From a virus: 48,968 nucleotides of DNA. A model generated the notes under the pieces. It was not told the origin of the DNA and did no database searches. It worked only from the letters and a program-made list of their open reading frames with translations. Made by a program: the position numbers and the translations under genes. Positions 2,972 through 41,290 of this stretch are shown in pieces (position 1 is the stretch's first letter; the number at the start of each line of letters is the position of its first letter). The stretch lies in IMG/VR virus record IMGVR_UViG_3300045941_000175, one strand, 5' to 3'.

Positions 2972-3069
2972 CAGAACAGCACCAGCAGAACGACCGCCGC
3001 AAACAAGACGCTGCCGACAAGAAGCCAGTTCGCCAGCAGCCAGCTTTTGAGAAAATCAAAGTGCTGCAT
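2968..3069 (-). CDS. Small single-pass membrane protein (33 aa), below the ORF-track size cutoff
   Basis: MQHFDFLKSWLLANWLLVGSVLFAAVVLLVLFW. The ATG shares 1 nt with the upstream TGA (TGATG), and its stop overlaps the next start. Confidence 0.45.
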   Translation of the reverse strand: MQHFDFLKSWLLANWLLVGSVLFAAVVLLVLFW

Positions 3070-3290
3070 CACGTCCGCGGGGCGCCATCCGCCTGCCGGC
3101 TGATCGCCACGTTCACCCACATGGCAACCTCGCGAAGTTTGCGCAAAATAAACGTCTTGTCCGGACCGTCCGGCACCAGAACGTCAATCGCATCGGCATA
3201 GGCCTTGGCCGCCTGCCGCATGGTCGCCATGTCGTCAGCCTGCGCATCGGAAGGCTTGAGATAGCCAAACGTCTCTGGATGCAAAGTCAT
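3069..3290 (-). CDS. Hypothetical protein (73 aa)
   Basis: GGAG lies 7 nt upstream of the ATG at 3290. MTLHPETFGYLKPSDAQADDMATMRQAAKAYADAIDVLVP... Confidence 0.6.
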   Translation of the reverse strand: MTLHPETFGYLKPSDAQADDMATMRQAAKAYADAIDVLVPDGPDKTFILRKLREVAMWVNVAISRQADGAPRT

Positions 3291-3848: not shown

Positions 3849-4568
3849 TCAAGCCTTGTCCTGCGCTTGGGCCGCGGCTGGGCTCACCGGCTTGGCCGGC
3901 GTGACGTCGATCGCCTGGGCCTCGATCAACCTGCGGGCATCGGGCAGGGATTGTGCGCTTACGATCGCCTGCCGCTGCAGGATGGTGGCGAGCGCTCTTG
4001 CCCGCTCATCGTCTGAGATCGTGTGGTGCACGGTCAAGGCGCCGCTTGTCACTGTTTCAACGCGGTCCGCGTACACCTTCGGCCGCAACTTGCTCGCCAT
4101 CCACTGCCGGGTATTGACGCGCAACTTGGCCGCATTCACCGCGGCCGGCTCGGCCTCGCCTTCCGCGTCGTCTGCAATTGCAATGCAATCATCGGCCAGA
4201 GCATCGGCGCCGGCTTCACGTGCCCGACTGTAGCACTCCGCGAAAGTCGGATCATCCCGCAACCAATTAAACCAGGCCATCCGTGCTGGGCCTTGCGGGA
4301 ATGCGCTGCAGAATGCGACCAGGGATTTACCTGCGGTCAACCATTCACAGAGGGCGGCTTGCCAATGGGCCTTTTCCTCCGGAGGCCATGCCCGCGGTTG
4401 TGTGACCATGGGCGGGGAGACTTTCGGCTTATGACCGTTGCGGTATTCCGCGGCTTTGCGCTGGGGCTTGTTTTTGCGCTTTTTGCGCACGTATTCGCGG
4501 TCCGCCTTGCGTTTACGGGCTTTGCGTTCGAGGCCGGCGAGGAATGCCGGCGCCTGTAGTCGTTTCAT
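3849..4568 (-). CDS. Terminase small subunit-like DNA-binding protein (239 aa)
   Basis: Core W..ALCEWLTAGKSLVAFC...WFNWLRDDPTFAECYSRAREAGADALADDCIAIADD...AKLRVNTRQWMASKLRPKVYADR matches the pattern I recall for Sf6-gp1-like small terminases. It is not adjacent to TerL. Confidence 0.5.
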   Translation of the reverse strand: MKRLQAPAFLAGLERKARKRKADREYVRKKRKNKPQRKAAEYRNGHKPKVSPPMVTQPRAWPPEEKAHWQAALCEWLTAGKSLVAFCSAFPQGPARMAWFNWLRDDPTFAECYSRAREAGADALADDCIAIADDAEGEAEPAAVNAAKLRVNTRQWMASKLRPKVYADRVETVTSGALTVHHTISDDERARALATILQRQAIVSAQSLPDARRLIEAQAIDVTPAKPVSPAAAQAQDKA

Positions 4569-8578: not shown

Positions 8579-8600
8579 CCCGCCGCGGCGGGCTTTTTTT
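8579..8600 (+). terminator. Rho-independent terminator ending the rightward early operon
   Basis: Palindromic stem cccgccgcggcggg (8579-8592) followed by c plus T7. It is preceded by a second perfect 10-bp hairpin, ccggccgcga/tcgcggccgg, at 8533-8556. Confidence 0.8.
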
Positions 8601-8627
8601 GCGCCGACCGGCGCCGGCCGGCCCAAG

Positions 8628-8679
8628 CCTGGACGGGCAGCCCGATTCAACAAAACCTGGACGGGCAGCCCGATTCAAC
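8628..8679. repeat. Perfect 24-bp direct repeat x2 separated by AAAA (28-bp period)
   Basis: cctggacgggcagcccgattcaac at 8628-8651 and again at 8656-8679, in the non-coding gap between the early-operon terminator and the moron island. Confidence 0.9.
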
Positions 8680-8688
8680 GTGGGCCGG

Positions 8689-9012
8689 TTATTTTTGCCG
8701 CATCGCATTGCCCTTGGCGTCGAGAACGACGCGAAGGCAAGAGAACCGGACGCGAGCATCGGGTTCGATAAATTTTTCGTGCACCCGGCGCATCCAGAGA
8801 CAATGGCCAGGCCCGCCGGAGCCGACAAAGACCAGCGCATCGGCCGGAAACCGTGGCGAGCGCGGGTTAGGCACAGGAACGGCAAGCCCCGAGCGCTCAC
8901 GCATCAAGACGCTCGCCTCCGTGGACGCCAAGAGCTTAGGCGCAGGCGCAGCCTTAGGCTGGGGCGCGAGGGTGGCGATCGCGATGACGGAAACCAGAAA
9001 GACCCAGCGCAA
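8689..9012 (-). CDS. Secreted hypothetical protein (about 107 aa; TTG start proposed)
   Basis: A TTG start at 9012 gives MRWVFLVSVIAIATLAPQPKAAP..., which is signal-peptide-like. The track ATG at 9138 would add an Arg/His-rich extension that looks non-coding. Confidence 0.45.
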   Translation of the reverse strand: MRWVFLVSVIAIATLAPQPKAAPAPKLLASTEASVLMRERSGLAVPVPNPRSPRFPADALVFVGSGGPGHCLWMRRVHEKFIEPDARVRFSCLRVVLDAKGNAMRQK

Positions 9013-9178
9013 AGGCTCGATCAGATGATCCCGAGCAAGTATGCGATGGCGAGCGGCGGGCCAAGTATCGCGGTCAATGCGAGACACGCGAGCCAGCAGG
9101 CGCCGATTGTGAAGCAAATTCCGATGGTCGCGCTGCACAGGTAGCCTCTAACGCGCTGCAAGCAAATCCTCCGCAATG

Positions 9179-9209
9179 AAAAAGGCCGGACGGGGGCGCC
9201 CGTCCGGCC
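9179..9209 (-). terminator. Rho-independent terminator after the PEP-CTERM gene pair
   Basis: 11-bp stem ggccggacggg/cccgtccggcc with loop ggcg. On the minus strand it is followed by TTTTT (plus-strand A-run 9179-9183). Confidence 0.75.
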
Positions 9210-9217
9210 TGGATGGT

Positions 9218-9787
9218 TCAAGCGGTTGCGAGACGACCGCGGGTAAAGAACGCCCGGATCTTTTCGCGATTGCTTACACCGAACAGCGCAGCCAAGCCGC
9301 TGAGAAACAGCCACACGGCGGCAGGCAGCGGCACCGGCGGCGGGACGGTGGCAAGGTTGCCGCCGTAGCCGGACGTGCCGTTGGCAAAGCCCGCTATGTT
9401 GAGGAAGTAATCCCCCGCAAGCAGGAAAGCCGAGCCGGCCATACCCTGACAATTCGGGATGGGTCCGCAGCCGAGTACGGCAAGGACCGGCCCGATGACG
9501 GTTGCGCCAGGAATTGCCGGCGTTCCCGCAATCACCGACGCATTAAAGCCGGTGATGAAGTCAGAGGCTTGCGCAAAGACGTTGGTCACGGACGCGATGG
9601 TCAGTGTCGCGTTTTGCGTCAGGTGGAAGGTGTATTGATCCGAAAACGCGCCGACGAGTGCGCCCAACGAGTGATTGAAGGCACCAGCCGCCGATGTCGG
9701 ATCATCACCGAAGCTAGTGATGGTTGCCGCCTTGAGTGGCGTTGCAAGCGCCACCAATGCAGCAATAGCAAAGACAACTCTCCTCAT
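9218..9787 (-). CDS. Secreted protein with VPLPA-CTERM/PEP-CTERM-type C-terminal sorting signal (189 aa)
   Basis: N-terminal signal peptide MRRVVFAIAALVALATPLKA. C-terminus is VPPPVPLPAAVWLFLSGLAALFGVSNREK, which is motif, TM helix and basic tail. Confidence 0.75.
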   Translation of the reverse strand: MRRVVFAIAALVALATPLKAATITSFGDDPTSAAGAFNHSLGALVGAFSDQYTFHLTQNATLTIASVTNVFAQASDFITGFNASVIAGTPAIPGATVIGPVLAVLGCGPIPNCQGMAGSAFLLAGDYFLNIAGFANGTSGYGGNLATVPPPVPLPAAVWLFLSGLAALFGVSNREKIRAFFTRGRLATA

Positions 9788-9802
9788 GAGAAGGTCCTTT
9801 CG

Positions 9803-10507
9803 TTATGCCCGCTGAGATCGTCCCGCATCGGGCGACGGGTCGTTGTTTTTGCGGCGTCTGTTCAGCAGGTACAAACCAACGAGACCTGTGCCGAACAACC
9901 AAACGGCGCCCGGAATTGGCACTTCCGGAACACTGAAAGGCGTGGGACCGCCGCTAAGATCGACAAAGCCAGTGCGGCCATTCGTGCCGCTCAAAATGTC
10001 GAGCACCATGAACGCCAAGGTATCCCCCGGCGGAGTGGTTGACAGTTCAGCGAAGCTCGCCAGCGTGAGACCGGCGCCGCTGATTGAGAACGACGCAGAG
10101 GTGGGACCATTGCCCCCGCTCCATGTCCCCTCGATGCCGTATTCAAAGTTGCCGAAGCCATCGGCGGCAAGAACCCCGGCGTTTTGCTGGTTGACCGGGA
10201 TCACACCGGGAATCGAGAACGATGCCGATAGGCCGGAGTAGGTGATCGTTGGATTGCCGACCAGGTTGAAACCAAAGACGACGTCCTGCCCGCCATTGGC
10301 AAAATTGTTGCCATTGAGAAAGGCGATCGCAATATCGATGGTGCCATTTTCATGATCGGTTGCGGTGATGGTGGCAAAGCCGTTGGCTTGCGGGCCGCAC
10401 AGATTGGTACAGTGATCGGAGAAAAAAGTGCCCGTCGCGACCGTGACACCCTTGGCCGGCAGCGTTGTGGCGGCGAGCAGCGCCGCGAGCAGCAGGATTT
10501 TTCGCAT
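9803..10507 (-). CDS. Secreted protein with PEP-CTERM-type C-terminal sorting signal (234 aa)
   Basis: Signal peptide MRKILLLAALLAATTLPAKG. C-terminus is VPEVPIPGAVWLFGTGLVGLYLLNRRRK. AAGGAGG SD upstream of the ATG at 10507. Confidence 0.75.
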   Translation of the reverse strand: MRKILLLAALLAATTLPAKGVTVATGTFFSDHCTNLCGPQANGFATITATDHENGTIDIAIAFLNGNNFANGGQDVVFGFNLVGNPTITYSGLSASFSIPGVIPVNQQNAGVLAADGFGNFEYGIEGTWSGGNGPTSASFSISGAGLTLASFAELSTTPPGDTLAFMVLDILSGTNGRTGFVDLSGGPTPFSVPEVPIPGAVWLFGTGLVGLYLLNRRRKNNDPSPDAGRSQRA

Positions 10508-10606
10508 GGGGCCTCCTTTGTAAGGGTAGCGTTAAGCAAAAGCTTGACACACACGCCGGCACCTCCGCAAGGGGGGAGGTATAAATTTGGGGAAAAGAAC
10601 CATTAA

Positions 10607-10636
10607 CCTTGACAGGCGTCAAGGCCACACTTAACA
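10607..10636 (+). promoter_or_regulatory. Operator palindrome CCTTGAC-aggc-GTCAAGG overlapping a candidate promoter (CTTGAC-N17-TTAACA)
   Basis: Palindrome at 10607-10624. The same TAACCTTGAC-N4-GTCAAG unit recurs at 47395-47413. It lies upstream of the XRE operon. Confidence 0.45.
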
Positions 10637-12135: not shown

Positions 12136-12222
12136 GGTCCGCATGTAGGCGTTGTGGCAAAGCCGGCAGTATCGTTGTCCCTTCATTGGCTCGGCGGCAC
12201 GGCATTTGCTGCAGTCTGCCAT
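12085..12222 (-). CDS. Small zinc-ribbon protein (45 aa), below the ORF-track cutoff
   Basis: MADCSKCRAAEPMKGQRYCRLCHNAYMRTWRKL... The ATG shares 1 nt with the upstream TGA (TGATG). Its 3' end is antisense to the exonuclease remnant. Confidence 0.5.
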   Translation of the reverse strand: MADCSKCRAAEPMKGQRYCRLCHNAYMRTWRKLDGPVVGEVFRDE

Positions 12223-12659
12223 CAAAGCCTCCGCAGCCGGCATAGGGTCCGCGTCTTCTCCCAAGCGACAAACGCCGGGCTTGGGTTCCTTGCTCCTTCG
12301 AATTCAATTCGATCCCTTCTTAGGGTTTCAGTGGGTTTAAGTAAGGTTTCATGCTTGTCAGAGAGCAGACAAGGGTCCCTTGTCAGAGTGTGACAAGGGT
12401 CCTTGTCAGCAGTGACAAGGGTCAGCTTCGACGTCCTGCCCGACCTCTCCTGCCGTATGACAAGACCTTTTTCGATCAGCCGGCGAAGGGTCCGGTTGAT
12501 TTCGCTGCGTGAGATCCCCAGGCGCCGGCTTACAAAGGTCAGCGACGGGAAACATTCATGCGGTGGCTTGATGGCATGGTCGGCCAGAGCAACCAGCACC
12601 AGCTTGTCGAGCGGTCGTAGTTTTTGGTCGAGAGCCCAGCGAACAGGGTGGATCGGCAT
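12222..12659 (-). CDS. Winged-helix DNA-binding protein, candidate replication initiator (145 aa)
   Basis: N-terminal ...LDKLVLVALADHA...FPSLTFVSRRLGISRSEINRTLRRLIEKGLVIRQ is wHTH-like. GGGAGGA SD. Codons 79-102 are encoded by the repeat array at 12354-12423. Confidence 0.6.
   Translation of the reverse strand: MPIHPVRWALDQKLRPLDKLVLVALADHAIKPPHECFPSLTFVSRRLGISRSEINRTLRRLIEKGLVIRQERSGRTSKLTLVTADKDPCHTLTRDPCLLSDKHETLLKPTETLRRDRIEFEGARNPSPAFVAWEKTRTLCRLRRL
12354..12423. repeat. Iteron-like array: three about 23-bp units of alternating CTTGTC / GACAAG(GGTC) dyads inside the wHTH gene
   Basis: CTTGTC at 12354, 12379 and 12402. GACAAGGGTC at 12368, 12392 and 12414. Palindromes at 12368-12384 and 12392-12407. 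Flanked at 12300-12350 by an AT-richer stretch. Confidence 0.8.
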
Positions 12660-14672: not shown

Positions 14673-14692
14673 CCAGACCAAAGGGAAATGCA

Positions 14693-14899
14693 ATGCCGAA
14701 CCTCGACAAGGCTAGGGCCTGCATTCAATCAATCCTCAACTTGCCCTTTGTCAATAAGAACGTCCGTTACTACGCGGAGGTGGCGCTGTCCCACCTGCAA
14801 CCGGAGAAAGATTATGGCACTGAGCGAGAGACAGGAGATCGCCCGCAAGGGCAAGATGACAGGGAGCCGGATCGGAACGCTGGTAAGCGGGAGCTCTGA
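14693..14899 (+). CDS. Possible small protein (68 aa) overlapping the exonuclease start
   Basis: AAGGGA SD. MPNLDKARACIQSILNLPFVNKNVRYYAEVALSHLQPEKD looks protein-like, but the last 28 aa are read out of frame over gene 14814. Confidence 0.3.
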   Translation: MPNLDKARACIQSILNLPFVNKNVRYYAEVALSHLQPEKDYGTERETGDRPQGQDDREPDRNAGKREL

Positions 14900-15635
14900 G
14901 GATCTTTACAATCTATGGCTAGAGCTCACCGGCGATCCATCGTTTAAGCCGCCCGACTACAGCAACAATTTCGCCGTCCAACTCGGCAACGCCACCGAGA
15001 AATTCCACCTCGATTGGATTGAGCGGGCGCTCGGCACCATCGATTGCCGCGGCGATAGCCTGCAGCACCCCAAGGTGGAATGGGCGGCCGTCACGCTCGA
15101 CGGCTGGGCAAAACGCGACGGGGTCCCGGTCGAAGCCAAGCACACCGGCGGCTTTGAAAGCATGGATACCATTATCGATCGCTACATGCCGCAGATGCAA
15201 TGGACCATGTTTTGCGCCGGCGTGAAGGAGGTCGCCTTCTCGGTCATTCAGGGCGCCAAAGAGCCAAAGCCGCTTTTCATCGGCTACGACTCCGAATACG
15301 TCGACGACCTGGTAGACGAAGCCGAAGCGTTCATGAAATGCGTTCGCGAATTGCGCGAGCCGATTCCAAACCCCTTCATTAAACCACCCAAGCCGGTCTT
15401 CACTCGTATCGTTGACATGACCGGCAATAATGAATGGGGCTTTCACGCCAGCGCATGGTTAAGCAATCGCGTGGCGTTCCAGAAATACAACGAGTCCGCC
15501 AAAGCCATCAAAAACCTAATGCCATCCGATGCCAAAGAGGGCTGGGGTCACGGCATTATCGTGAAGCGCAGTAAGGCCGGAGCGCTCACAATCAAATTGG
15601 AGAACGACGATGACGAAGCAAAAGCCGAAGACTAA
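14814..15635 (+). CDS. YqaJ/lambda-exonuclease-like recombination exonuclease (273 aa)
   Basis: GGAGAAAG SD plus ATG at 14814. PD-(D/E)xK-type signature ...VTLDGW...VPVEAKH..., with YqaJ-like N-terminal ...GSRIGTLV... Confidence 0.8.
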   Translation: MALSERQEIARKGKMTGSRIGTLVSGSSEDLYNLWLELTGDPSFKPPDYSNNFAVQLGNATEKFHLDWIERALGTIDCRGDSLQHPKVEWAAVTLDGWAKRDGVPVEAKHTGGFESMDTIIDRYMPQMQWTMFCAGVKEVAFSVIQGAKEPKPLFIGYDSEYVDDLVDEAEAFMKCVRELREPIPNPFIKPPKPVFTRIVDMTGNNEWGFHASAWLSNRVAFQKYNESAKAIKNLMPSDAKEGWGHGIIVKRSKAGALTIKLENDDDEAKAED

Positions 15636-16503
15636 AGCCCTGGTCAAAGCCGAGCCCCGGCCGCCGGCGCTGTCTCCCACCCTGGCGCTGATCGAGCGGG
15701 CCGCCCGCGATAAGAAAATTGACATCGCCAAGATGCGCGAGCTCCTGGCAATGCAAAGCGAGGAGGAGAAGCGGATCGCGGCTCGCATTTTCGAAGCGCA
15801 GATGAATGAGGTGCAGACGAAGATCGAGCCGGTGCGCAAGGATGCCGATAACCCGCACACTAAATCCAGGTTTGCGACATATCACGCGCTCGATGCCGCC
15901 ATCCGGCCGATCTATGTCGAGCATGGATTCTCGGTCTCATTCGACACCGAGGAAACCGACAAGCCCGACACCGTTGTCGTGCTCTGCTACGTCGGGCACC
16001 GGGCCGGACACAATCGCGTCTATCGGATTGCCATGCCGGCGGAGGGCAAAGGCGCCAAGGGTGGCGACGTGATGAGCAAGACCCACGCCACCGGTTCGGC
16101 CGTCACCTACGGTCGACGTTATCTGTTGTCGATGATTTTCAATATCGCCACCCTGCAGGACGACGATGGCAATGCCGCCGGCCGCTATCGGCCAGCCGAG
16201 CGGCGCCAGGAAACCAGGCCGGCCGGCAATGGCGGCGAGCAACCAGCACCGCCGCCACAGGAGCAAGCCAAGCCGGCCGAGAAGCAAGCCCCGCATGCGA
16301 TCGAGCGGCCAGCCGGTATCAGTGCCGCGGCCTGGGGCGGCAAGGTGATTGAGCAAGTGTTGTTATGCGAGACCGTGCCGGAGGTGGACGCCTGGACAAA
16401 AGCGAATGACCAATCGCTGGCGGATCTCGAGAAGGCGGCGCCGGCAATTTACGAGAAGGTCAAGAGGACGATCGACGATCGCATCAAATGGATTACGAAA
16501 TGA
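15610..16503 (+). CDS. erf: ERF-family single-strand annealing protein (297 aa)
   Basis: ...SRFATYHALDAAIRPIYVEHGFSVSF...HRAGH...GSAVTYGRRYLLSMIFNIATLQDDDGNA matches the ERF pattern as I recall it. It is paired with the exonuclease. Confidence 0.75.
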   Translation: MTKQKPKTKALVKAEPRPPALSPTLALIERAARDKKIDIAKMRELLAMQSEEEKRIAARIFEAQMNEVQTKIEPVRKDADNPHTKSRFATYHALDAAIRPIYVEHGFSVSFDTEETDKPDTVVVLCYVGHRAGHNRVYRIAMPAEGKGAKGGDVMSKTHATGSAVTYGRRYLLSMIFNIATLQDDDGNAAGRYRPAERRQETRPAGNGGEQPAPPPQEQAKPAEKQAPHAIERPAGISAAAWGGKVIEQVLLCETVPEVDAWTKANDQSLADLEKAAPAIYEKVKRTIDDRIKWITK

Positions 16504-18686: not shown

Positions 18687-18989
18687 ATGAAATACACGAC
18701 CGAGAAAGAGATCTCTCGCTACCCATCGGCCAGGGCAACCGGCCGAACCATGACCGTTGATGGCGTTCTCTTTCAGGACTACCGGCTTTTGAACCGCAAC
18801 CTTTGGCGGACCCCCGACCAATTCAGCATTGAGGTCGGCCGGCATGGCGCCGAAAACACCAATTATTACGTCAAGATCCACAATCTGATTCTTGAAGTCA
18901 GCTATCCCAAAGCGCGAAGCGCGGCCCAGGCCGGCATCAAGACGCTCGCTAAATACATTGGCCCACGCGCTACGGCATTCGGCATTTGA
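18687..18989 (+). CDS. Hypothetical protein directly upstream of, and ATGA-coupled to, TerL (100 aa); alternative small-terminase candidate by position only
   Basis: MKYTTEKEISRYPSARATGRTMTVDGVLFQDYRLL... No motif recognised. The stop overlaps the TerL ATG. Confidence 0.5.
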   Translation: MKYTTEKEISRYPSARATGRTMTVDGVLFQDYRLLNRNLWRTPDQFSIEVGRHGAENTNYYVKIHNLILEVSYPKARSAAQAGIKTLAKYIGPRATAFGI

Positions 18990-20572
18990 TGCAGCCCAGC
19001 CAATCAGATCCGCTCGAGCCCTATCGCGCCATGCTGGCGACGATGGACCCGAAGGCGAAAGCCGAACTAGACCGCATCATCAAAAAGGAAATGTCGGCGC
19101 TATGGTCCCCGGATCCGCGCAACATTCCGCAGATGGTCGCCTACGAAAGCCGGGCCGACCTGTTGCTCTACGGCGGCGCCGCCGGCGGCGGTAAGACCGA
19201 CCTGTTATGCGGCACTGCACTCACCCGGCACCAACGCTCGGTGATCTTTCGCGCCCAATACAAGGATCTCCGCGCCGTCGAGGAGCGCGTCCTGCAGCTT
19301 GCCAATAAAGGCGGCCGCGAGGGCTACAACGGCCAGGACATGGTCCTCAAGAAGGACGGCATGGTGATCGAATTCGGCGCGATCGGCGGCGCCGGCCAGG
19401 AAATGGATTGGCAGGGCCGGCCGCACGACTTCTACGGCTTCGACGAGGGCGCCCAGCTATCCGCGCAAAAGGTGAATTTCGTCACCGCCTGGAAACGCAC
19501 CACGATAAAGGGCCAGCGCACACGAATCATCATCGCCAGTAACCCGCCAATAGGGGGAGAGGGTGAATGGCTGATCGAATGGTTCGCTCCCTGGCTGGAC
19601 CCGATGTATTCCAACCCGGCACAGCCGGGAGAGCTCCGGTGGGCATTTGTGGGGCCGGACGGTCATACCGTTTGGTGTGAGAACGGTGACGTCGTGATGG
19701 TCGGCACCGAAGAATACACGCCGATGACGCGGACCTTCATCCCCGCGCACCTCGAGGATAACCCCTACCTCGATCCCAGCTATAAGGCGCAAATCCAATC
19801 TCTGCCCGAGCCGCTGCGCTCCAAGCTATGGAAGGGCGACTTCCTCGCCGGTCGCGAAGACCACGCCTGGCAGGTGATCCCCACCGAATGGGTGCGCCAG
19901 GCGCAAGCCCGCTGGAAACCAGGCGCCCCGGAAGGCCTGCGCATGCTGTGCATGGGTGTTGATATTAGCGGGGGCGGTTCGAACGATCCGCATTGTATTG
20001 CAAAGCTTTACGGCAATTGGTTCGACCGATTGACCGTGTTGAATGGCGTCGACGCCAAGAACGGCCAGCAGCTTGCCGGCCAAATCATTGCCCACCAGCA
20101 GGATAGCGCCCTGATCGTGCTAGACATGACCGGCGGCTGGGGAGGGTCGGCTCGCGATCACCTCGCCAGTAACCGCATCCAGGTCGAATCCTGCATTTTC
20201 AACGCCAAGTCGGCCGAGCGAACCAAGGACGACAAATTCCGCTTCTCCAATCAGCGGGCGGAAATGCTTTGGCGGTTTCGGGAAGCGCTCGACCCAGCGA
20301 GCGGCGACAATGTCGCCTTGCCGCCGGACGAGCGGCTGACCGCGGAACTGACAGCGGCCCGATGGCGTCCGAAGATGGACACCATCCAGGTCGAAGACAA
20401 AGACGAGATCCGGCATCGGCTCGGCGGCTCACCCGATCGCGCCGACGCTGTGATGATGGCCTGGCATTATCGGCGCCGCGCCATGCGCGCCGGCCTGTTT
20501 GCCGATGCGGAGGTCAGGGAAGCCGTCGAGATCGACGATCCCTTTAAGCTTTTGACCGAGTTAGAGAATTAA
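18986..20572 (+). CDS. terL: Terminase large subunit (528 aa)
   Basis: Walker A LLLYGGAAGGGKTD, Walker B-like HDFYGFDEGAQ, ...IIIASNPP..., and a C-terminal nuclease region with conserved acidic residues. Confidence 0.9.
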   Translation: MMQPSQSDPLEPYRAMLATMDPKAKAELDRIIKKEMSALWSPDPRNIPQMVAYESRADLLLYGGAAGGGKTDLLCGTALTRHQRSVIFRAQYKDLRAVEERVLQLANKGGREGYNGQDMVLKKDGMVIEFGAIGGAGQEMDWQGRPHDFYGFDEGAQLSAQKVNFVTAWKRTTIKGQRTRIIIASNPPIGGEGEWLIEWFAPWLDPMYSNPAQPGELRWAFVGPDGHTVWCENGDVVMVGTEEYTPMTRTFIPAHLEDNPYLDPSYKAQIQSLPEPLRSKLWKGDFLAGREDHAWQVIPTEWVRQAQARWKPGAPEGLRMLCMGVDISGGGSNDPHCIAKLYGNWFDRLTVLNGVDAKNGQQLAGQIIAHQQDSALIVLDMTGGWGGSARDHLASNRIQVESCIFNAKSAERTKDDKFRFSNQRAEMLWRFREALDPASGDNVALPPDERLTAELTAARWRPKMDTIQVEDKDEIRHRLGGSPDRADAVMMAWHYRRRAMRAGLFADAEVREAVEIDDPFKLLTELEN

Positions 20573-22009: not shown

Positions 22010-25000
22010 CTACGGGATACACGCATCCGAAAGTGTCCAATTATACGGGAAGGCTTCCACCCACGCCGACACCGTTTCGTCTTCGTCCCAAGCAGTTTCG
22101 CCGTTTCCTGTTGGGACATCGCTCCCCATGACAAGCATGGTGCCATCCGACAGCGCGACCATGACGACACACTCTGAGCCGGAGCTTGAGGTGCTTTTGC
22201 CGTAGGACATCACCTTGCTGATGGTCACGCCGGAGCCGCGAGTTACCGGAACTTCTACCGGGTTGGCAGTGTTGCTTTCCGACTGCGATGCGCCGTCGAG
22301 GAAGTCATTTCCCCAAGCGAGCAGCTTGTCGCTGGCGAGCAGCGCGTAGATTGCATACTCGCCCTGCGTCGTGGTGCAGCATGGACCGCAGGTAGACATG
22401 ATCTGTGCGGGTGTCCCGCTCAACAAACCTTGTGCTTGTGTCGGCGTCGAGATATTGCCGTCAGCCGTCGTGATCGGCAGGTTGTTGCCGCTTTTCTGTC
22501 CCCAGCAGTAGACCGCGCCGCTGGTTAGCTGACAGATAAAAGCGCCAACGTCAGAGCGGGAATGAGAATTAAAAATCCGCTCGACCGTGCCGTTGAGCGT
22601 CGATGCAACAGCGGTGCCAACGCCAACCTTGAGCGGATTGTTCTTGCTGACAATCGTGCCGTCGCCCATCTGGCCCTGTGCGCCATAGCCCCAAGCGTAG
22701 GCGCACTTGTCGGCGCACCGGAGGACGATGGTGTCCTGCGCTTGGATGAGAACGTCGATGCCTTGGTAATCGGACGGCAAGGTGCCGAAGCCGTCGGCAA
22801 CGGTATAGACCGGACGAAAGACGTTCTGTGAGCCGGTGCCTGTGTTGCGTCCGACCGCGCCAGCCCGCAACGCGCCAGCCAGCCGCAGCTTGCCGCTGGC
22901 GTCGAGGTAGGCGACGGAGCCTTGATTGCCGCCCGCCGCGACCACCTTCTTGCAGTCGGCCACTGCAACATTGCCCGCGCCGTCGTTTTTCAGGCATTGG
23001 GTCGGCACCAGCAGTTGCGTGGTGTTGCCCTGTGCCAGTTGGCCGAAGCCGTTGTAGCCGCAAGCCCAAAGCGTGTCGTCAGCGCAACGGAAATAAACCG
23101 ATGCAGCCGTCGCGCCAAATGCAGTGCCCTGACCGGTGTGAGCAATCTCGACCACTGCACGGCTTGCCCCGCCCGCAGAGCGCGGTGAGATGTTCGCGGC
23201 GGAGATCAGCGTCATCACCTGGATCGCGGTGCCTGCCGCGCCGCCAGTCGCACATTCACCTGTGATGTTCTTGCCGGAGACGCAAACGTCACCTTGGTCT
23301 GTCAGCACGTAGAGGTCGAAGCCGTTGTAAAAAAGCGAGACAGGCGTTCCCAGCAGACCGTTGGGCATTGCGATACTTGTAAGTTCAAAATTGGCGTACC
23401 CGTTTCGTGTTAGCCCCTGACCTTTCGCGGCGACCGTATTTGCGGCGGCAGAATTGACCGCAAACGGCACTCCGCTGGTGCGGACCTTTCCGTCCGCTGT
23501 GATGGCTGCCCAGAGGGAGTGGTCCTCATTCACATGCGACGTGAAGACAGACGGCATGGTGCTGTTGGGGAGCGCAGTCACGCGCTTGAACGCTGGAAGT
23601 TCGCTTCCAACTCCGGCTGCGGCAATAGCCGCCGTCACAAAGGCCGTCGTCGCAAGGGAGGTGTCATTGTCGCCAGCCGTCGGCGTCGGCGCTTGCGGAT
23701 TGCCGGTAAAGACCGGCGAGGCGAGCGGTGCCTTCGGGGCGAGGCCAGCGGTGAGGGAATTATCGACGTACTGCTTGGTGGCAACGCCGAGCGCGGCAGT
23801 CGGGTCGCCTTGAATGGTGATAAGGCCACTCTGCCGGTTAATGCTGAACGGCGACTCCGCTATGATCGCGCCAGCGTCGTCGTAGCGATAGATCACAAAA
23901 TTAGAACCGGCATTGCCGCCACTCTCAGCCGCGTTGTTGCCGGGGATGACAACCCAACGGTCTAAATCGTCCTTCTGACCGAAAAGATAACAAGCCTCAT
24001 CATCCGTCCTGTTCAACGTCAGTGCTGGCGACGCCTTGCTGATCGTCAAGTCACCCGTCATCGTGTCGCCGGACTTGGCAACCTTGTCGGCGGCCAATGC
24101 AGCAAAGCGGGCATCATCGCCAGCCGCAACGGTGCCTGCCGCCGTGCCGACGTCCTTGACCGCAGCGTCACCCAGCCCGAGGTTGTCACGCGAGGTTGAT
24201 ATGCTCGCCACGTCGGACAGATTGTTCGCGGCCAGCATGTCGCCGCCGCCGCCGCCGGGTCCGCCTGTGCCGTCGTTGCCCTTTTGCGCCAGAAGGTCCC
24301 AATCGGCCGGGTTCGCCGCCGGCGATTTGTTCGTGTTGCTGGTCTTTGCGATGTACGAGGTGCCGCCATCCTGGACGGCATCGTTCGGCGCATAGGCCGT
24401 CGCGCTATTCCACGGCCCTTGCCATTCGATTTTGGCAACCTCTGCCGCGCTCGCGGACGCTGCCGCCGCGCTGGCTGAACCAGCCGCCGCAACCGCCGCG
24501 GTTTCGGCATCCTCCGCATAGCCGGCCGCCAGCATGGACGAATTGGTCGCCGCCGCTTGTGCCGCCTGGGCCACATTGGCAGACGCCGCCGCGCCGGAAG
24601 CAGAATTGGCGGAATCATTCGCCGCTTGTTGCGCGGCATCGACGAGGCCGACCAAGGTTTCGGCGTCGGGAACCTCATCCTCCGGCGTGTAATCGGGAGC
24701 TCGCACGGCCCGCGAAATTCGATCATCGAGCCGCTGGCAGATTTTGGTCAGGCGATCGAGCGCTTGCTCATGGCTATCGGCCGGGAAATCATCGGCGTTG
24801 ATGTAGTGCGTTTGCTGAGTGATGTCGGGCGAATTGATGATGATAACGGTCACGCCGACCGGCGGCGCCACTGCAAAGGCGACTGTGCCGCCCGTCGGGT
24901 TCATGACCCCGGTCACGGTGTAGTCTGTGCCGATTATCTGCAGGGTGCCGTTGCTGGTTGCGTCATCGAACAACCAAACCTCGAGATCGTTCGACTGATA

Positions 25001-25081
25001 GAATTGGTACGGGTAGGAAAATTCCGTAACGACGCCATTGCCGGCGTATTCTTTCCTGGCTTCGGCTGCGGTGACGGTCAA
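22010..25081 (-). CDS. Tail fibre / receptor-binding protein (1023 aa) with RCC1-like repeats at the C-terminus
   Basis: Conserved fibre N-terminus (Y.GNG..TEF..P.......L.V.L...). Ala-rich coiled region, Gly run, GDTMTGDL, and PVFTGNPQAPTPTAGDNDTSLATTAFV. C-terminal WACGYNGFGQLAQG, YAWGYGAQGQMGDG, YCWGQ and LAWGND repeats. Confidence 0.8.
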   Translation of the reverse strand: MTVTAAEARKEYAGNGVVTEFSYPYQFYQSNDLEVWLFDDATSNGTLQIIGTDYTVTGVMNPTGGTVAFAVAPPVGVTVIIINSPDITQQTHYINADDFPADSHEQALDRLTKICQRLDDRISRAVRAPDYTPEDEVPDAETLVGLVDAAQQAANDSANSASGAAASANVAQAAQAAATNSSMLAAGYAEDAETAAVAAAGSASAAAASASAAEVAKIEWQGPWNSATAYAPNDAVQDGGTSYIAKTSNTNKSPAANPADWDLLAQKGNDGTGGPGGGGGDMLAANNLSDVASISTSRDNLGLGDAAVKDVGTAAGTVAAGDDARFAALAADKVAKSGDTMTGDLTISKASPALTLNRTDDEACYLFGQKDDLDRWVVIPGNNAAESGGNAGSNFVIYRYDDAGAIIAESPFSINRQSGLITIQGDPTAALGVATKQYVDNSLTAGLAPKAPLASPVFTGNPQAPTPTAGDNDTSLATTAFVTAAIAAAGVGSELPAFKRVTALPNSTMPSVFTSHVNEDHSLWAAITADGKVRTSGVPFAVNSAAANTVAAKGQGLTRNGYANFELTSIAMPNGLLGTPVSLFYNGFDLYVLTDQGDVCVSGKNITGECATGGAAGTAIQVMTLISAANISPRSAGGASRAVVEIAHTGQGTAFGATAASVYFRCADDTLWACGYNGFGQLAQGNTTQLLVPTQCLKNDGAGNVAVADCKKVVAAGGNQGSVAYLDASGKLRLAGALRAGAVGRNTGTGSQNVFRPVYTVADGFGTLPSDYQGIDVLIQAQDTIVLRCADKCAYAWGYGAQGQMGDGTIVSKNNPLKVGVGTAVASTLNGTVERIFNSHSRSDVGAFICQLTSGAVYCWGQKSGNNLPITTADGNISTPTQAQGLLSGTPAQIMSTCGPCCTTTQGEYAIYALLASDKLLAWGNDFLDGASQSESNTANPVEVPVTRGSGVTISKVMSYGKSTSSSGSECVVMVALSDGTMLVMGSDVPTGNGETAWDEDETVSAWVEAFPYNWTLSDACIP

Positions 25082-25099: not shown

Positions 25100-28000
25100 T
25101 TACCGCCCTGCTTCGGCCGGCAGAGACAATGGCGCTGCTTTGCCTTTCTTGACAGTCACGCCGCCGGCGTCGACGGCGCCGCGGCCGCTTCGCCTGCCGC
25201 CGCCCTCATAACCCTGTGAGGCGGCCTGCAGGCTTATCGTCTTTAGCTGGTTTGCAAGCTGATTGGGATTAACAGATTCGCCGGCCCGCAGGATACGCTG
25301 GGCTTTCGGCCAATAGGTTTGAATGCTGCTAATCGGCATGACCTTGTTACGAGCCAATTGACCGCTCAATTCTCGCCCCACCTCCGGCGAGACCTTGTTG
25401 ATGACGTCGAGATAGGGCTGGGTGTCGACGATCGGCAGATATTTGTAGCCCGGAAGCCCTTGCACGATATTGGAATTGCGCGCCTCAATCGCGGTGTATT
25501 CGTTAAGCGCCTGCACCAGAATGTCGACCTTGCCCTTTTCGACCTTGATGCGAATGCTGGGATCGCGAAGCGTGGCCAGGCCGCCCTCCGCCAAAAGCCC
25601 GTTTTTCAGAGACCGCGTCACCGATGCGAGCGCAGAGGCGCGATCGAGCGGATGCAGTACCTTGGAAAGCGGCCCGCCCGCCGTTTGGTGAACACGCACA
25701 TAGTCGCGCTGTGCATCGTCGAGCGTGTTGAAATACGTGGTGGCGGCAACGGTGTCGCCATCCTTGACCAATTTGCTCATCGATTTATTGGCAACCGTCA
25801 GCCGGCCGCCGTTCTGCCCAATCTGATTATAGAGTTCGTTCATGGGCTCGCCCATGGCCATGCGATCTTTGACGAAAGCGCGCAACGCCGGCACGTCGCT
25901 GATCTTGAAATTGGCTTCCTGGCCAGAGAGCCCATTTATGAGGGACCGGCCAATTCCACCAATGCCGCCGAGCTCCCGCGGCCAATCCCCGAACATGCCC
26001 TGCATGAGATATTGCGCTTCCATCGGGGACCAGGCGGCCCCGATCATGGCGCCGACAACCGGAATGTTTTTGCGGAACCAATCACGCGCATCCTCCGAAT
26101 TCCAAATCATGTTCATGCCCTGGGCCAGGGCAACGTAGAATTTGTTGGTGTATTCATTGGCTTGCAGATGCGGCGCCACGCCCTGCAGGCTTTGCGACAC
26201 GATCGGCCGCTGAAAGAAACTATCGTAATTCGACGCCAGGCCGGTTGCCGTCTTGATCGCCGGCAATTCGAACGGGTTAGGAACGCTGAATGTGTAGCGC
26301 ATCGAGGCGAGGAATTTTACCGCTTGCTGCGGATCGCCGGAGTGCAGGAATTCAACCGCCTTCTCCGCCAGGTTGAAGGCAGTGCCAGGCTCCCAGGGCT
26401 TCGGAATGAAGATCCAGGCGCCTTGCATCCCCTCCGGCAAATTCACTGTGCCGCCGCCGAGCATGTCGTACACGCCTGCTTTGAGGAACGGCAGGCGGAA
26501 GATCCAGTTTTGCGAGCGCTGTTGCACCGAAAGCCGCTGATAGACCGGATCGTCTTGCCAGGCATAGGTGATGCCGGCCGAGATCGCCGCGAGTGCGCCG
26601 ATGCGGGGAATGAGAGTTTGCCGCAAGGCCTGTTGATACTCGGCCTGTTGCTTGGTGAAGGGCTTGAAGAACATGCCAGGCGAATTCGGGGTGCCGGAAT
26701 AGGTGCGGATGAACTTGTCGAGACCCTGAATGTTTGCGTTCATGAACGGCACCAGGCGCGACCACATTTCCATCTTTGAGCCCATGCGGCCGTAATCGAT
26801 GAAATCCCGCGCCTTCATTGCCGCATCAAACATGGCGTAACGCGGATCCCGATTGGCGGCGATATTGGCCTCATAGACCGCACGAAACAGCCCGACGCGA
26901 CCGGCGGTTTCCGATATTTCCATGCGCGACATAAGTTCCTTGACGTTGCCGATCCAAATTTGCTTGTGCGGTTCGACGCCGGCCACGCCCAGGGTCTTCG
27001 CCATTTCGACGCGGGACGCCTGCAGGGCGGATGGATTGAATTTGCTTTTCCCGATCGCCGGCGTCGTCTCGGTTGCTTCCTCGGTGAAGCGCTTAATCTG
27101 CCGTTCGAATTCGACCTGTTGCGTACTGCGGGAAAGACCTGAGGCGCCGACACCGCCGCGAATGCCGCCGGTCGACAAATACATGCGGTAAAAATCATCG
27201 CCCAAAAGATACGAGCGGCCGCCGCGGACAGCGTTCGCCAGGGCAAGCGTAGAAGCGTCAGCTTCCGGCACCAAAAGAAACTGCATGAAAGCGTCACGCA
27301 GCAGGTTTTTCGCCATGAAGGTCGGCGTCCCCGTTGCGCCGGTGCGCAGGGTTTGCGAGGTGAAGGTGAGCGTGTCCATCATAAGACCGCCGGCCTGTGC
27401 CCAGGTCGCCATGCCCTTCGGCCCGAGCGAATCCATCACCTCGACTAGGTGCTGCCCGAACAATCCATCCGGCAATCGCATGGCAAAGCGTTCGCCATTT
27501 TCCCAGCCGAAGATGATCGGCCGGCTGCCGGCCTTGATGGCTTCCTGGCGATAAAGCTTGGTGCGAATATCGGGACCGAGTTCGTGCTGCAGATTACGCA
27601 CAAGGCCCTTGGCGTCTTCCGGCATCCAGCCCGCGGCAGTCGCGGCCTTATAAACCGCCTCCTCGACGTTGATGTCCATTGCGCGCAATTCATTGCTCGG
27701 AATCATTTCGGCAATGCGAGCGCCTTCCTTGCCGCCGACCAGGTTCACCAGGTCACGCAATGCCCGGACGATCATATTCTGATGTGCTTGGTTGTTGATG
27801 TCGGCCAGGCGAACCATGAGGCTTTCGGTCGGGGAAAGAATGTCGCGGCCGGAACCGGTGCGCTTAAAGCGGCCAAGCTCCTCGAGCGGCTTGTCGCCAC
27901 GGAATGAACCGCCGACACCGAGCGATTCTGTGATACCGCTCATATCGCGATAGAGGTGCACAAATCGGTGATTCCGGTCGTGCATGATGTCGTTATAGGA

Positions 28001-31000
28001 CTCGGTCGTGCGCAGGCCATTCTCATGTTCAAGCTTGGCGACAAGCTTGTGGACGCCGTAGATCTCCTCGGCGTAACCACTCCACTCCGGATGCAACTTT
28101 TCAACTTGCGCAATCTTTTGCGCGGCTTCGCCATCGGTCAGCCCTGTGGGCATGCGCGTGAGATCAATCTCGCCATTCGACATTTGCCGGCGCAATTCGA
28201 TATGCCAGCGAGCCGTCAGATAGCCGTCAAAGGACTTGCGGCGGGCAAGATATTCCGCGGCGGTCGACACCTCCTTGCCGGTCAGAGGGTCGCTTGTGAC
28301 CTTGCGCAGGATACTAAAAACGGATGCGCCCTCCGGCGTCAGGTCGCGCATGCTTTGAATGCCGTAGGTGAGATCCATCACCGTCTTCTGGAAACCGGCG
28401 TCCCCGAGCACTTGCGCCAAAAGCCGCGGGTCCTGGTCCGGCCGCAGGTCGAGAAGCTTGCCGTGCTTCTTTTCGTATTCCTGGGCCAGGTAGCGGAACG
28501 CCACCGTTAGCGGATGCTGCTTGTTGACGTAGTTCCAATAGAAATTGGACATGGCTCGCGCCAGCGGACCGCGTTGCAGCGGATCGCCGGGGATTGGCGC
28601 CGGCACTTCGCCGTGTGTTCTGATAATCGCATCAACCGCTTGATCGGACGGCGCCGCATTCCAGCGTTCGAATGAGGCATGCGCATCATCGAGCGTTGCC
28701 AACAATTCCGGGTTCTCGCGGGCCATGGTCTCGCGAAAATCCTTCACGAATTTCGGGTCAATGCGCTCGAGACGTGCCCGATTGGTGACGTAGCCGGCCA
28801 TGAATTCGGCAAAGCCTTCCGAGCGCAATTCGGCGCCTTCCAGGCCTTCGCCCATCACGCCGGCAAAGGCGCGCATGCTTTCATCCTTGTTCTCAATCAA
28901 GGTCGTAATCGCGGGGACCCTGTCTTCGACCGCATGGCCAACTTCATGCGACCAGGTCGTAACCGCATCCGGACCGTCTTCTTTGATGCGAACGATTTTG
29001 GTGTCGTAGTTATAGGTCCCGAGTGCACCGCGTTCATGCACCCCCTTGCGCACAATCAGATCCAGCTTGTCGGAAATGCGCCGCATCATCTGGCGCAGGT
29101 TTTCAATCGGCGTTAGCGGGCCATGGAAATTGGCGCTCGCCACGCCTTCCCCTGGGCGGGTTTGGCCGGGTGGGCGACCAATGCCCTGCCCAGCCATCCC
29201 CTTCAATCGCTTGGCAATTCTGACTTCCTCTGCCGACGGAGCGACCCCTCCGCCGCCCTCCGGTGCAGCCGCGCCAGGGGCGCGTTCCCCTCCGGGTCCC
29301 ACTTCTCCAATTGCGCCGCCCTCGCCAGGTGTTGCTCTGGCGAAAGCACCTTCCTCGAAGCCTGGGAGGACGTCGCCTGGGTCGTGGGCGGTGCCGGTGA
29401 ACTTTTGTTCGGCAATGGCGGCGGCATGCTGATCGTACTCCCTCATAGCCCGGTCAAACGCGACCTCGGGGGTGATGTCCTTTTCGGTGTAGGCAATCTC
29501 GATTGCACGGTTGCGTATGTCCTTGGCGACTTTCTTGTCGACGCCCTTGAGTTGGCTGGGATGCTGGTTGACTTCCCGCAGGTGGACGTCGATCTCGTCC
29601 ATCGTCTGAATAAGCTTCGGATCGCGCCGCGCTTCGGCGGCCTGGGCCTTCGCCGTCTCGCCGGGATGGTAGTGCTTAACGCCCTTGTTTTCGTCGGCCA
29701 GGCGCTTGAGCACGTCATTGGGTGTCGACGTCGCCATGCCACCTGACTCAAGGCCTTCGTCCGGGATCCAGCCCTGTTGAACGGCCGCCTCGCGAATCTC
29801 ATCCAGCGACTTGCCGCCCTTCGCCCTTTTGCGCACCAGGTCGCTTTTGGTGTAGCCGTAGATTGCCTTGAGCTCCGGACCTGGCTCGATGCCGCCTTGC
29901 GAGCGGACCCATTGCGTGAAGGTTTGCGGCTCCTCGCCCTTGCGGGTCGCCTTGTCAAAATCGGTCAGGTTTTCGAAGACGCTTCTTTCCGCCGGCGCGG
30001 ATAGAATTTGCTGCGCTTCCGCCGGCGTCATTGTCTTGATTTGCTCCGGCGTATAGCCGCGCTCCGCCAGTTGCGCCCTCATGTCCTGCGTAATCATGAA
30101 GGGGATGCCTTCGGCGGTCGTTCGAATGTCCGGCGGGATTTCTTGCGCGGCCCTGGCAAACTCGGCCGGCAAAGACACGCGATCGCCCTTCGCCTCCGCG
30201 GCCGCAAAGGCTTCCGGCACATCGATGAAATGCGTGGCACCGGGGAATTCGTGGGTCGTGAACTGCAGCGCTTTGACGGCGTCGTCACCTTCGCCGGCGG
30301 CACGGAACAGCCGCACCGTACCCTCGGCGCCTTCCGGCATAGTGCCGACGGATACGCCACGATTGGCCGGCACCCCAGGAACCTCTTGCGCTGCACCAAC
30401 CTCGAATGTGTCGGCCGGCGCCCGCGGCGGCTCCGCCGGAATGTGCGGTTTGACCTCCGGCGTCAATTGCGGGCCGACCATGACACCGTCGATCATGTAG
30501 CGCTCGAGCGCCCTGGATCCGTAACGGAATAGCGCAGCGCCGCCATGACTTAGCGCGGCCAGGCCGCCGCCGAAGGCAAAGCCTTCCGGATAGGCCAGCA
30601 TTGCCTCGACCGGATCGAACTTCTTTCGCAGCCCGGCCTTGATTTGCTGATCCTGAATAACCGGATTGGCGGCGCCCTGAATTGCCGCCTGGCCAAAGCC
30701 GAAGGAAATCACACTCGACATGAGCGGATGCGCCGCCTGCCAGGCGGCATTGCCCCATTTGATCTCCGGGAAGACCAGGCCTTCGGGCGAGGCCATACCG
30801 CCCGCAAATTGGCCGGCCAGCGAATAGGCGCCTTCGACCAGGCCCTTCCAGGCCGGCATATTTTTATAGGCCAGATCGTCAGCCTGGATCTTGATGAGGT
30901 GATCCTTGGCGTCATTCTGGATGGCGTCGAAATTCACGTCCTTCGCGCCGGAAAGATCGACCGGCAATTCCGCGCCGGATGCGATGACGCCCTGCTCGAC

Positions 31001-34852: not shown

Positions 34853-34854
34853 GG

Positions 34855-35331
34855 TCAGGCCTCATCGACGTTGGTCGATCCGCCGAAAGAAAAATTGCCT
34901 CCGGACAGGCCGCTTGCGCCCTTTATCAGCGGCGATAGCGCTCCGAAAAGACCGCCGATTTGTTGCCCCTCTGCCTTCGTCCGCAAGGCTCGCGCCTGCA
35001 TTTCGAAGTTTTGCGCTTTTATCTCACCGTTGTATTTGATCGCCTGCACGTCGAGATCGGTTTGTTGCGTCGTGTCGACGATGACGTCGCTCGGTGTACC
35101 GGCCAGCGAAACGCCGGCCGATAGGAAGGCCGCCCGCTGGCTTGAGATTAGTTTGATCGCCTTGTGCTGTTGCTGTTCGGCGTTATAGGCGGCCTGTTGA
35201 CGCTCGAGTGCCGCCTGCCGCTCATAGGCTTGAGCCTGTTGCTGGGAAGCCTGCGCTGCCATCATGCCGGACATAACCGAGCCGGCCGCCCCTACGACCG
35301 CGCCGATGATTCCGAGCGCCATGACACACAT
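34855..35331 (-). CDS. T7 gp14-like internal virion protein (158 aa)
   Basis: MCVMALGIIGAVVGAAGSVMSGMMAAQASQQQAQ... has an N-terminal Met-Cys, a Gly/Ala hydrophobic stretch and a Gln-rich helix, as I recall for T7 gp14. The position fits. Confidence 0.6.
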   Translation of the reverse strand: MCVMALGIIGAVVGAAGSVMSGMMAAQASQQQAQAYERQAALERQQAAYNAEQQQHKAIKLISSQRAAFLSAGVSLAGTPSDVIVDTTQQTDLDVQAIKYNGEIKAQNFEMQARALRTKAEGQQIGGLFGALSPLIKGASGLSGGNFSFGGSTNVDEA

Positions 35332-35333
35332 CG

Positions 35334-41069: not shown

Positions 41070-41290
41070 GGGATCTTTCGCGCATAAAGAATGCCTTTGA
41101 TGGTTCGGTAGGCATAGCCGTCCTGGGTCGGACCCGGACACGGACAATCGGCATAATCAATGTCACAGTTCGGGCAAATACCGAAGGCGCCGCAATCAGC
41201 GGCGAAGACGACGCGGATCCACTTACGCGCCGGACGGGAAGCCCGACGACGGCGGGACCGGGGCCTTTCCGAATTGGCTAAGGAGTGCAT
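41048..41290 (-). CDS. Possible Cys-rich small protein (80 aa) overlapping the portal 3' end
   Basis: ...CGAFGICPNCDIDYADCPCPGP... is a zinc-ribbon-like cluster. The only canonical start (41290) lies 68 nt inside the portal gene and has no clear SD. Confidence 0.3.
   Translation of the reverse strand: MHSLANSERPRSRRRRASRPARKWIRVVFAADCGAFGICPNCDIDYADCPCPGPTQDGYAYRTIKGILYARKIPCPSSKA

Follow-up and report, generated by a model that had tools for sequence, protein, structure and literature searches.

Candidate exosortase-type sorting tails on two secreted proteins encoded side by side in an uncultured phage genome

Here we describe two adjacent genes, open reading frames (ORFs) A and B, on a stretch of viral DNA of 48,968 nucleotides from a soil phage (IMG/VR record IMGVR_UViG_3300045941_000175), which at its full length is called the window below. 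PHROG and Pfam matches to terminase, portal, capsid, and T7-like tail and internal virion proteins identify the window as a phage genome. Since its first and last 113 nt are identical (1-113 = 48856-48968), forming a terminal direct repeat that leaves 48,855 unique bases, the assembly is indicated to be circular and complete. An initial annotation, made from the sequence alone, had placed three leftward genes for secreted proteins at 8689-10507 and had proposed that two of them end in sorting signals of the PEP-CTERM and VPLPA-CTERM kind, which are processed by exosortases. We confirmed the coordinates of these two, ORF A and ORF B, and the C-terminal strings quoted for them proved correct; the third, ORF C, fared differently and is treated separately. 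The elements of the locus are as follows.

10604-10627, no strand assigned: palindrome TGGCCTTGACGCCTGTCAAGGTTA between ORF A and the XRE gene, with TTGACA facing right and TTGACG facing left
10512-10518, minus strand: Shine-Dalgarno sequence AAGGAGG, 4 nt upstream of the ATG of ORF A (sequence reading)
9803-10507, minus strand: ORF A, 234 aa, confirmed in the sequence
9848-9931, minus strand: tail of ORF A, aa 193-220, VPEVPIPGAVWLFGTGLVGLYLLNRRRK (subthreshold matches of profile hidden Markov models, HMMs; tails at the same columns in homologues)
9795-9800, minus strand: Shine-Dalgarno sequence AAAGGA upstream of the ATG of ORF B (sequence reading)
9218-9787, minus strand: ORF B, 189 aa, FxDxF-family PEP-CTERM protein (NF038126)
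9260-9334, minus strand: tail of ORF B, aa 152-176, VPLPAAVWLFLSGLAALFGVSNREK (partial match to TIGR03370)
9183-9210, minus strand: intrinsic terminator closing the A-B unit (terminator prediction, folding energy and inverted repeat I5)
8689-9138, minus strand: ORF C, 107 aa from a TTG at 9012 or 149 aa from a GTG at 9138, a doubtful ORFan
8579-8592, plus strand: terminator of the rightward early operon and left boundary of the region (terminator prediction)

In the window, the A-B cassette forms a separate leftward unit that diverges from the XRE gene and in which ORF B starts 15 nt after ORF A stops. The claim that the pair has its own Shine-Dalgarno sequence and a strong terminator was borne out, as the AAGGAGG is in place and the terminator has a 12-bp stem with 10 GC pairs followed by a T-run (dG -33.8 kcal/mol, z -4.5). 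The early-operon terminator said to bound the region was also found. With its hexamers facing both ways, the palindrome between ORF A and the XRE gene is a candidate operator/promoter shared by back-to-back promoters.

Both proteins begin with what read as Sec signal peptides without a lipobox cysteine (MRKILLLAALLAATTLPAKG before V and MRRVVFAIAALVALATPLKA before A, respectively), in agreement with the initial annotation. Sequence inspection revealed a positive n-region, a hydrophobic core of 11-13 residues and a small-residue cleavage site in each, and AxA sites occur at the matching position in the homologues. In addition, the strands of the AlphaFold2 models start at residues 21-22, which is consistent with the end of the signal peptide. 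These models are confident for both proteins, with a mean predicted local distance difference test (pLDDT) score of 85.2 for ORF A and 83.5 for ORF B. In both, the signal peptide spans aa 1-20. It precedes a beta-rich domain in ORF A (aa 22-184), in which the motif SDHCTxxCGPQ is conserved, and a beta-sandwich of 11 strands in ORF B (aa 21-148); each protein then closes with a C-terminal tail of the sorting type.

The two tails share a tripartite layout of a motif, a transmembrane (TM) helix and a basic cluster. The tail of ORF A reads VPEVPIPG, then AVWLFGTGLVGLYLL, then NRRRK, with a modelled helix at 200-221; a cytoplasmic extension of 14 aa, ending in Ala, comes next. That of ORF B reads VPLPA, then AVWLFLSGLAALFGV, then NREK..R..R.R, with a modelled helix at 156-188, and the 13-aa extension IRAFFTRGRLATA comes after the basic cluster. 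At the level of whole families, ORF B is recognized by the curated model NF038126 (FxDxF PEP-CTERM) with 51.6 bits against a cutoff of 50 (E 1.2e-13), a narrow margin, and its residues 7-173 cover model positions 4-163 of 165. All 28 aligned ORF B relatives match the same model at E<=0.01, some of them under 50 bits. For ORF A, no curated family scored above its cutoff, and only subthreshold, tail-driven matches to many PEP-CTERM families were obtained; its tail is subthreshold to TIGR03370, TIGR02595 and PF07589 and to the C-termini of 7 PEP-CTERM families. A family profile of ORF A collected 287 clusters at 50% identity (E<=1e-30), mostly proteins of 205-250 aa, and a canonical PEP motif, TM helix and RRR stand at the end of 94 of the 143 newly returned top representatives, which are distant ones.

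Further evidence comes from the homologues (n=96 for ORF A and n=154 for ORF B). At the same alignment columns, directly after the conserved beta-rich domain, members of both families bear differing tail types: [VT]P[LI]P[AG]A[VI]WLF (VPLPA-like), VPEPxxWAM (PEPxxWA), VPEPxS (PEP), VPDGG (VPDSG) and VPGPxxGAGLPGL. The first four types are matched by named NCBIfam models in relatives of ORF A and ORF B. When 36 proteins were scanned, namely 34 from related phage and metagenome contigs plus ORFs A and B of the window, TIGR03370 matched 14 at E<=0.01, the best at 5e-8. Counted over clusters at 90% identity, the tail types are distributed as follows.

ORF A family: VPLPA-like 36, VPGPxxGAGLPG 17, PEP 28, VPDSG 5
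ORF B family: VPLPA-like 54, VPGPxxGAGLPG 43, PEP 9, VPDSG -

Such swapping is expected of real, host-matched sorting signals. Because a mere anchor is unlikely to switch among discrete signal classes, we read the tails as putative sorting signals. The VPGPxxGAGLPGL tail is likewise followed by a hydrophobic stretch and RRR, for example in L017 (10001-10549), L021, L056, L078 and L095 among the loci and in P0092, P0076 and P0114 among the homologues. This class was matched by no NCBIfam sorting-domain model, and from its sequence it may be an undescribed variant of the sorting signal.

For the modelled fold of ORF B, the best PDB matches are pre-peptidase C-terminal (PPC)/collagen-binding domains, the claudin-binding domain of Clostridium perfringens enterotoxin (C-CPE) and CBM6/35, with E-values of 3e-6 to 1e-3 and target-normalised TM-scores of ~0.4-0.7, and we read the modelled fold as a generic small binding module.

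Taken together, we favour the reading, at a probability of about 0.6, that ORF A and ORF B are a two-gene cassette for PEP-CTERM/VPLPA-CTERM-type proteins that use the exosortase of the host to alter the surface of the infected cell. Both proteins would be exported by Sec, as suggested by their signal peptides, and each would then be held in the inner membrane by the VPxP motif, the TM helix and the basic cluster. By analogy with known substrates, the host exosortase would cut off the tail and deliver the beta-sandwich domain to the surface of the cell or to the exopolysaccharide (EPS) matrix. Since the window encodes no multi-pass membrane protein, and thus no phage exosortase, any processing of the tails must be the work of the host; a phage without a sortase would rely on the host enzyme. 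A constant domain joined to a changing tail type would fit tails matched to different host sortases. The payoff, a changed surface of the infected cell, is speculative and the weakest part of the argument. Because the modelled fold of ORF B resembles small ligand- or carbohydrate-binding domains, and in line with the general logic of phage envelope genes, the two proteins may attach to a receptor in the envelope or EPS or hide it, which could bring about superinfection exclusion or could spare the loss of progeny on infected cells and debris. Altered aggregation would be an alternative payoff.

Several results weigh against this reading. The proposed PEP-CTERM-type architecture held as regards the tripartite layout and the NF038126 match of ORF B, and failed at the sorting-domain HMMs, so that the profile search suggested by the initial annotation was half successful: the family model recognized the protein and the short sorting-domain models did not. 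TIGR03370 (cutoff 25.35) scored 19.4 for ORF B, where the match spans only model positions 1-17 of 25, and 15.3 for ORF A, whose tail also stayed below TIGR02595 (14.2 versus 16) and PF07589 (14.2 versus 20.7). The basic cluster of ORF B is weak, and its aligned homologues have RRRK at that place. Classic PEP-CTERM proteins end nearly at the basic cluster, and ORFs A and B run 13-14 residues beyond it. The fold search of ORF A against PDB and BFVD returned no significant match, and so no analogue that would hint at an activity. As for the timing and purpose of expression, a scan for E. coli-type sigma-70 promoters found none in the region nor in three related loci, and no integrase, excisionase or partition gene was detected across the whole genome with Pfam and PHROGs.

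The subthreshold scores, the atypical basic cluster of ORF B and the long cytoplasmic extensions of both proteins would suit the main rival, which we consider unlikely though deserving of attention, namely that these are plain periplasmic proteins whose C-terminal helix is a permanent inner-membrane anchor without any exosortase processing. The anchored domains may then act in the periplasm, for instance by keeping out the DNA of a superinfecting phage or by inhibiting its cell-wall hydrolase (T4 Imm/Sp, PliG-type). Indeed, the periplasmic lysozyme inhibitor PliG appears in the fold list of ORF B (E ~5e-4), and the phage's own ejection protein bears SLT and amidase domains. However, PliG is one among many generic beta-sandwich matches with low TM-scores. 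The extensions themselves were surveyed over the ORF A/B homologues P0001-P0216 and loci L019-L153: most phage-type copies have a variable extension of 5-20 residues after the basic cluster, with Ala as the last residue (often AA, VA or LA). C-terminal Ala was found in 67 of 90 VPLPA-type clusters versus 7 of 56 genes of this phage, which suggests that the cytoplasmic end has a function of its own and thereby speaks for the anchor. Also against a permanent anchor, which would hardly account for it, four recognised or recognisable signal types are swapped at one position on conserved domains, and ORF B passes a curated PEP-CTERM family model.

As a separate observation, the Ala-ended extensions recall C-terminal degrons or recognition tags. 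In nine contigs (L043, L117, L119-L123, L128 and one more), the tail of the ORF B homologue ends early, after …AVPGPTVGSFNIASIVGLFK and a stop, and lacks a basic cluster. Such tails could have decayed or been frameshifted, or they could represent another way of ending the protein.

The distribution of the cassette is the principal new finding. Identical ORF A and ORF B proteins co-occur on 16-17 contigs, which derive from several samples and were assembled by two pipelines; in every case the XRE gene is their neighbour. ORF B relatives are present on 46 IMG/VR viral contigs and at 125 loci of JGI metagenomes, of which 80 were retrieved. In a genome collection of 185,579 species, only two loci were found, both in uncultured alphaproteobacterial metagenome-assembled genomes (MAGs) and both frameshifted or partial, one of them in a phage context. 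Neither the region nor ORF A or ORF B gave a match by megablast and tblastn among 50,697 GenBank phages and 72,556 PLSDB plasmids. The GC content at third codon positions (GC3) of ORFs A and B, 0.68, lies slightly under that of the structural genes (0.72-0.80), as it might if the pair were misassembled or passenger bacterial DNA, or ORFs without a function in the phage. This explanation is effectively refuted by the recurrence of identical proteins in the same context on those independent contigs, and by relatives on many viral contigs that are under purifying selection.

On the viral contigs, a second gene encoding a tail of this kind usually lies before or after the ORF B homologue; this partner is sometimes an ORF A homologue and sometimes belongs to another family. 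Most complete loci contain tail-bearing genes as tandem pairs. Among the phages, the cassette takes at least 3 genome positions, and the following cases illustrate the carriers.

This window: between the early operon and XRE
48,993-bp relative L066: between Erf/DUF1367 and RusA/TerL
L044-type group: close to a holin-like gene and the tail fibre
L067: a 43-kb carrier phage that also encodes GcrA

The flanks in other carriers include tail sheath, DNA polymerase, helicases, Sak4 and an HK97-type protease-capsid fusion; since these flanking genes differ in kind, the carriers span several phage types. Pairwise ratios of nonsynonymous to synonymous substitution (dN/dS) among the phage copies are ~0.1-0.3, with saturated dS. 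From these sequence comparisons we conclude that the cassette is under purifying selection and mobile between phages. On the cellular side, one homologue of ORF A, ending in a canonical PEP-CTERM, has chromosomal neighbours, namely another PEP-CTERM protein, a PilZ protein and a response regulator, and a second homologue sits among transposases. A copy of the ORF B family in an alphaproteobacterial MAG (L016, 9890-10515) has the tail VPEPASWAMM…YRRR split over two frames, which is probably a long-read indel error and not a true pseudogene.

This spread bears on a second rival, already raised by the initial annotation, that the genes are morons for lysogenic conversion. In this scenario, they would be expressed from a prophage under the adjacent XRE-type repressor, as rexAB is with cI in lambda, and would alter biofilm formation or flocculation. 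The leftward unit with its own terminator, its divergence from the XRE/Cro-type gene and the palindrome in between are what such a moron would look like. BPP-1-like podophages are among the nearest relatives by the terminase large subunit (TerL), BPP-1 being a temperate phage, and a 166-kb contig has an ORF B homologue at its end, amid phage-like genes. Flocculation of Zoogloea needs PEP-CTERM proteins (Gao et al. 2018, as cited in PMC12642866). Nevertheless, neither integrase nor excisionase nor partition genes were detected in a genome that is complete and circular; the contigs read for ORF A, ORF B and the 44206-44805 protein (16-19 for each) are all phage-sized or smaller and without host flanks; and in related phages the cassette lies inside early or late phage operons without flanking terminators. 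On balance, lysogenic conversion is doubtful, and we rate this explanation below that of a permanent anchor. As for the moron label, the terminator and the variable position speak for it, whereas no promoter was identified, no integrase is present, and the relatives have no flanking terminators.

In agreement with the initial annotation, the two genes are accessory and have no part in the virion or in replication. Two further roles were considered and rejected. A lysis or spanin role, which the holin-like gene nearby in some relatives might suggest, was dismissed since the architecture fits neither spanin type and the position is not conserved. A virion role was dismissed since a signal peptide and TM anchor are incompatible with cytoplasmic assembly.

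Extending the favoured reading beyond the window, we tentatively propose that a mobile cassette for one or two secreted proteins with a beta-sandwich is present in many uncultured soil phages, which belong to several morphotypes, and that the tails are matched to the exosortase type of the host, with VPGPxxGAGLPG-CTERM as an undescribed signal among them. Hijacking of the exosortase to decorate or mask the surface or EPS might then be a general, unrecognised phage strategy, a wider proposal that we hold to be possible and appreciably less secure than the reading of the two genes themselves.

The evidence for ORF C is of another order. Its TTG start has no Shine-Dalgarno sequence, and an alternative GTG lies 126 nt upstream. 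Three gene callers gave three annotations of this region: the 107-aa version, the 149-aa version from GTG 9138, and a 39-aa gene on the other strand. By codon-position GC, the frame of ORF C was not separable from the antisense frame. No homologue besides itself was found among 5.8 billion proteins, and no family match was obtained in the profile libraries. A hydrophobic N-terminus is the sole support for a secreted protein, and the third secreted protein claimed at 8689-9012 thus did not hold up. Lying downstream of the terminator, ORF C is not demonstrably part of the A-B unit, and its membership is doubtful. To its left, at 8625-8679, a 27-nt unit, AAGCCTGGACGGGCAGCCCGATTCAAC, is present in two tandem copies with a period of 28 nt and is unique in the genome; the repeats sit between two convergent terminators, and each copy has a small CGGGC-A-GCCCG hairpin.

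The remainder of the genome provides the phage context, with the following genes assigned by PHROG and Pfam matches.

3849-4568, minus strand: terminase small subunit (Sf6-type)
12222-12659, minus strand: lambda O-like replication initiator
14688-16503, plus strand: YqaJ exonuclease and Erf
18986-20572, plus strand: terminase large subunit
22010-25081, minus strand: tail fibre
25100-37670, minus strand: T7-like tail and internal virion proteins
38767-39780, minus strand: major capsid protein
41223-43124, minus strand: portal

The small terminase lies ~14 kb away from the large terminase and on the opposite strand, an unusual arrangement. Across the whole genome, Cro/XRE-type helix-turn-helix proteins were the only phage regulators detected by PHROG and Pfam. 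Among the small leftward genes, a 73-aa gene at ~3069-3290 (minus strand) has a precomputed Pfam match to Acb2_Tad1_hairpin (PF24729), which suggests a candidate anti-CBASS/Thoeris nucleotide sponge.

For the host, the nearest cultured relatives are distant ones: TerL is 40-45% identical to those of phages of Limnohabitans, Acidovorax, Bordetella (BPP-1) and Caulobacter, and the portal is 26-30% identical to its best matches. Overall, the portal, TerL and capsid matches (26-45% identity) are scattered over phages of Alpha-, Beta- and Gammaproteobacteria. The alphaproteobacterial host put forward in the initial annotation is consistent with the two MAG matches and with GcrA in L067, while the closest TerL matches are to phages of Betaproteobacteria as well as of Caulobacter. 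Because VPLPA-CTERM genes occur together with PEP-CTERM genes in the gammaproteobacterium Methylophaga (PMC12530212), the VPLPA variant does not fix the class of the host either, and the alphaproteobacterial assignment is only a lead. The tail fibre contains a WD40_RLD/RCC1-like propeller region, and segments of it are 72-89% identical to the fibres of otherwise distant cassette-bearing phages (loci L035, L038, L047, L048 and L065), which suggests that these phages have the same or related hosts and that fibre modules recombine.

Sorting by the PEP-CTERM/exosortase route is common among environmental bacteria, yet its substrates, products and roles are poorly understood. In this regard, phage-borne substrates would be small, portable and selectable probes of the exosortase pathway, and the tail type could mark the host range of uncultured phages. 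Such genes would also make up a class of their own, so far unrepresented among the phage genes known to modify the host envelope, with a bearing on superinfection exclusion, on biofilm and floc behaviour, and on phage-host dynamics in soil. The recurrent VPGPxxGAGLPG tail points to a signal variant missed by current annotation models.

Compared with known systems, ORF B is closest to the cellular FxDxF proteins of NF038126, which it resembles in size, signal peptide, beta-sandwich and C-terminal sorting tail. It differs from them in being phage-encoded and in having a VPLPA-like tail instead of PEP, a degenerate basic cluster and the 13-aa extension. With the PEP-CTERM/exosortase system (EpsH/XrtA), both ORFs share the motif, the TM helix and the Arg/Lys cluster after a Sec-exported domain, and the named tails of TIGR02595, TIGR03370 VPLPA-CTERM, NF035944 PEPxxWA-CTERM and TIGR03778 VPDSG-CTERM all occur in their homologues. 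Unlike that system, the window tails are under every domain cutoff, the phage has no exosortase, and many phage-borne relatives use the VPGPxxGAGLPG tail.

Among phage proteins, T5 Llp, lambda Bor/Lom, P22 SieA and T4 Imm/Sp act at the envelope, where they prevent superinfection or change the surface, and they are targeted as lipoproteins, beta-barrels or simple TM proteins. Like ORF A and ORF B, they are accessory to the phage and exported to the envelope, and their genes often form transcription units of their own. To our knowledge, none of them has an exosortase-type C-terminal signal, nor do we know of any sequence or fold relationship to ORF A or ORF B. A further comparison may be made with Zoogloea PepA (NF033554), a PEP-CTERM protein associated with flocculation (Gao et al. 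2018, as cited in PMC12642866 and PMC9012009). PepA, too, is a small secreted PEP-CTERM-type protein of the surface or matrix, and relatives of ORF A and ORF B gave weak matches to NF033554, although these are largely tail-driven and far under the 80-bit cutoff.

The claim that phage-encoded exosortase substrates were undescribed agrees with the literature we searched, in which no description of tailed-phage genes for exosortase-type substrates was found. The only near precedent there is HOG10, a PEP-CTERM-domain protein on the Dehalococcoides virus-like element IME1, to which a single sentence assigns a putative part in the virion or in adhesion (bioRxiv 10.64898/2026.09.15.751708). Like ORF A and ORF B, HOG10 is a PEP-CTERM-annotated protein on a virus-like mobile element, but it belongs to a different host phylum and a non-tailed element, and the source connects it neither with dependence on an exosortase nor with tailed phages. 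In summary, the kinds of components are known, namely the PEP-CTERM family and phage accessory envelope genes, and their combination and its breadth across uncultured phages are new.

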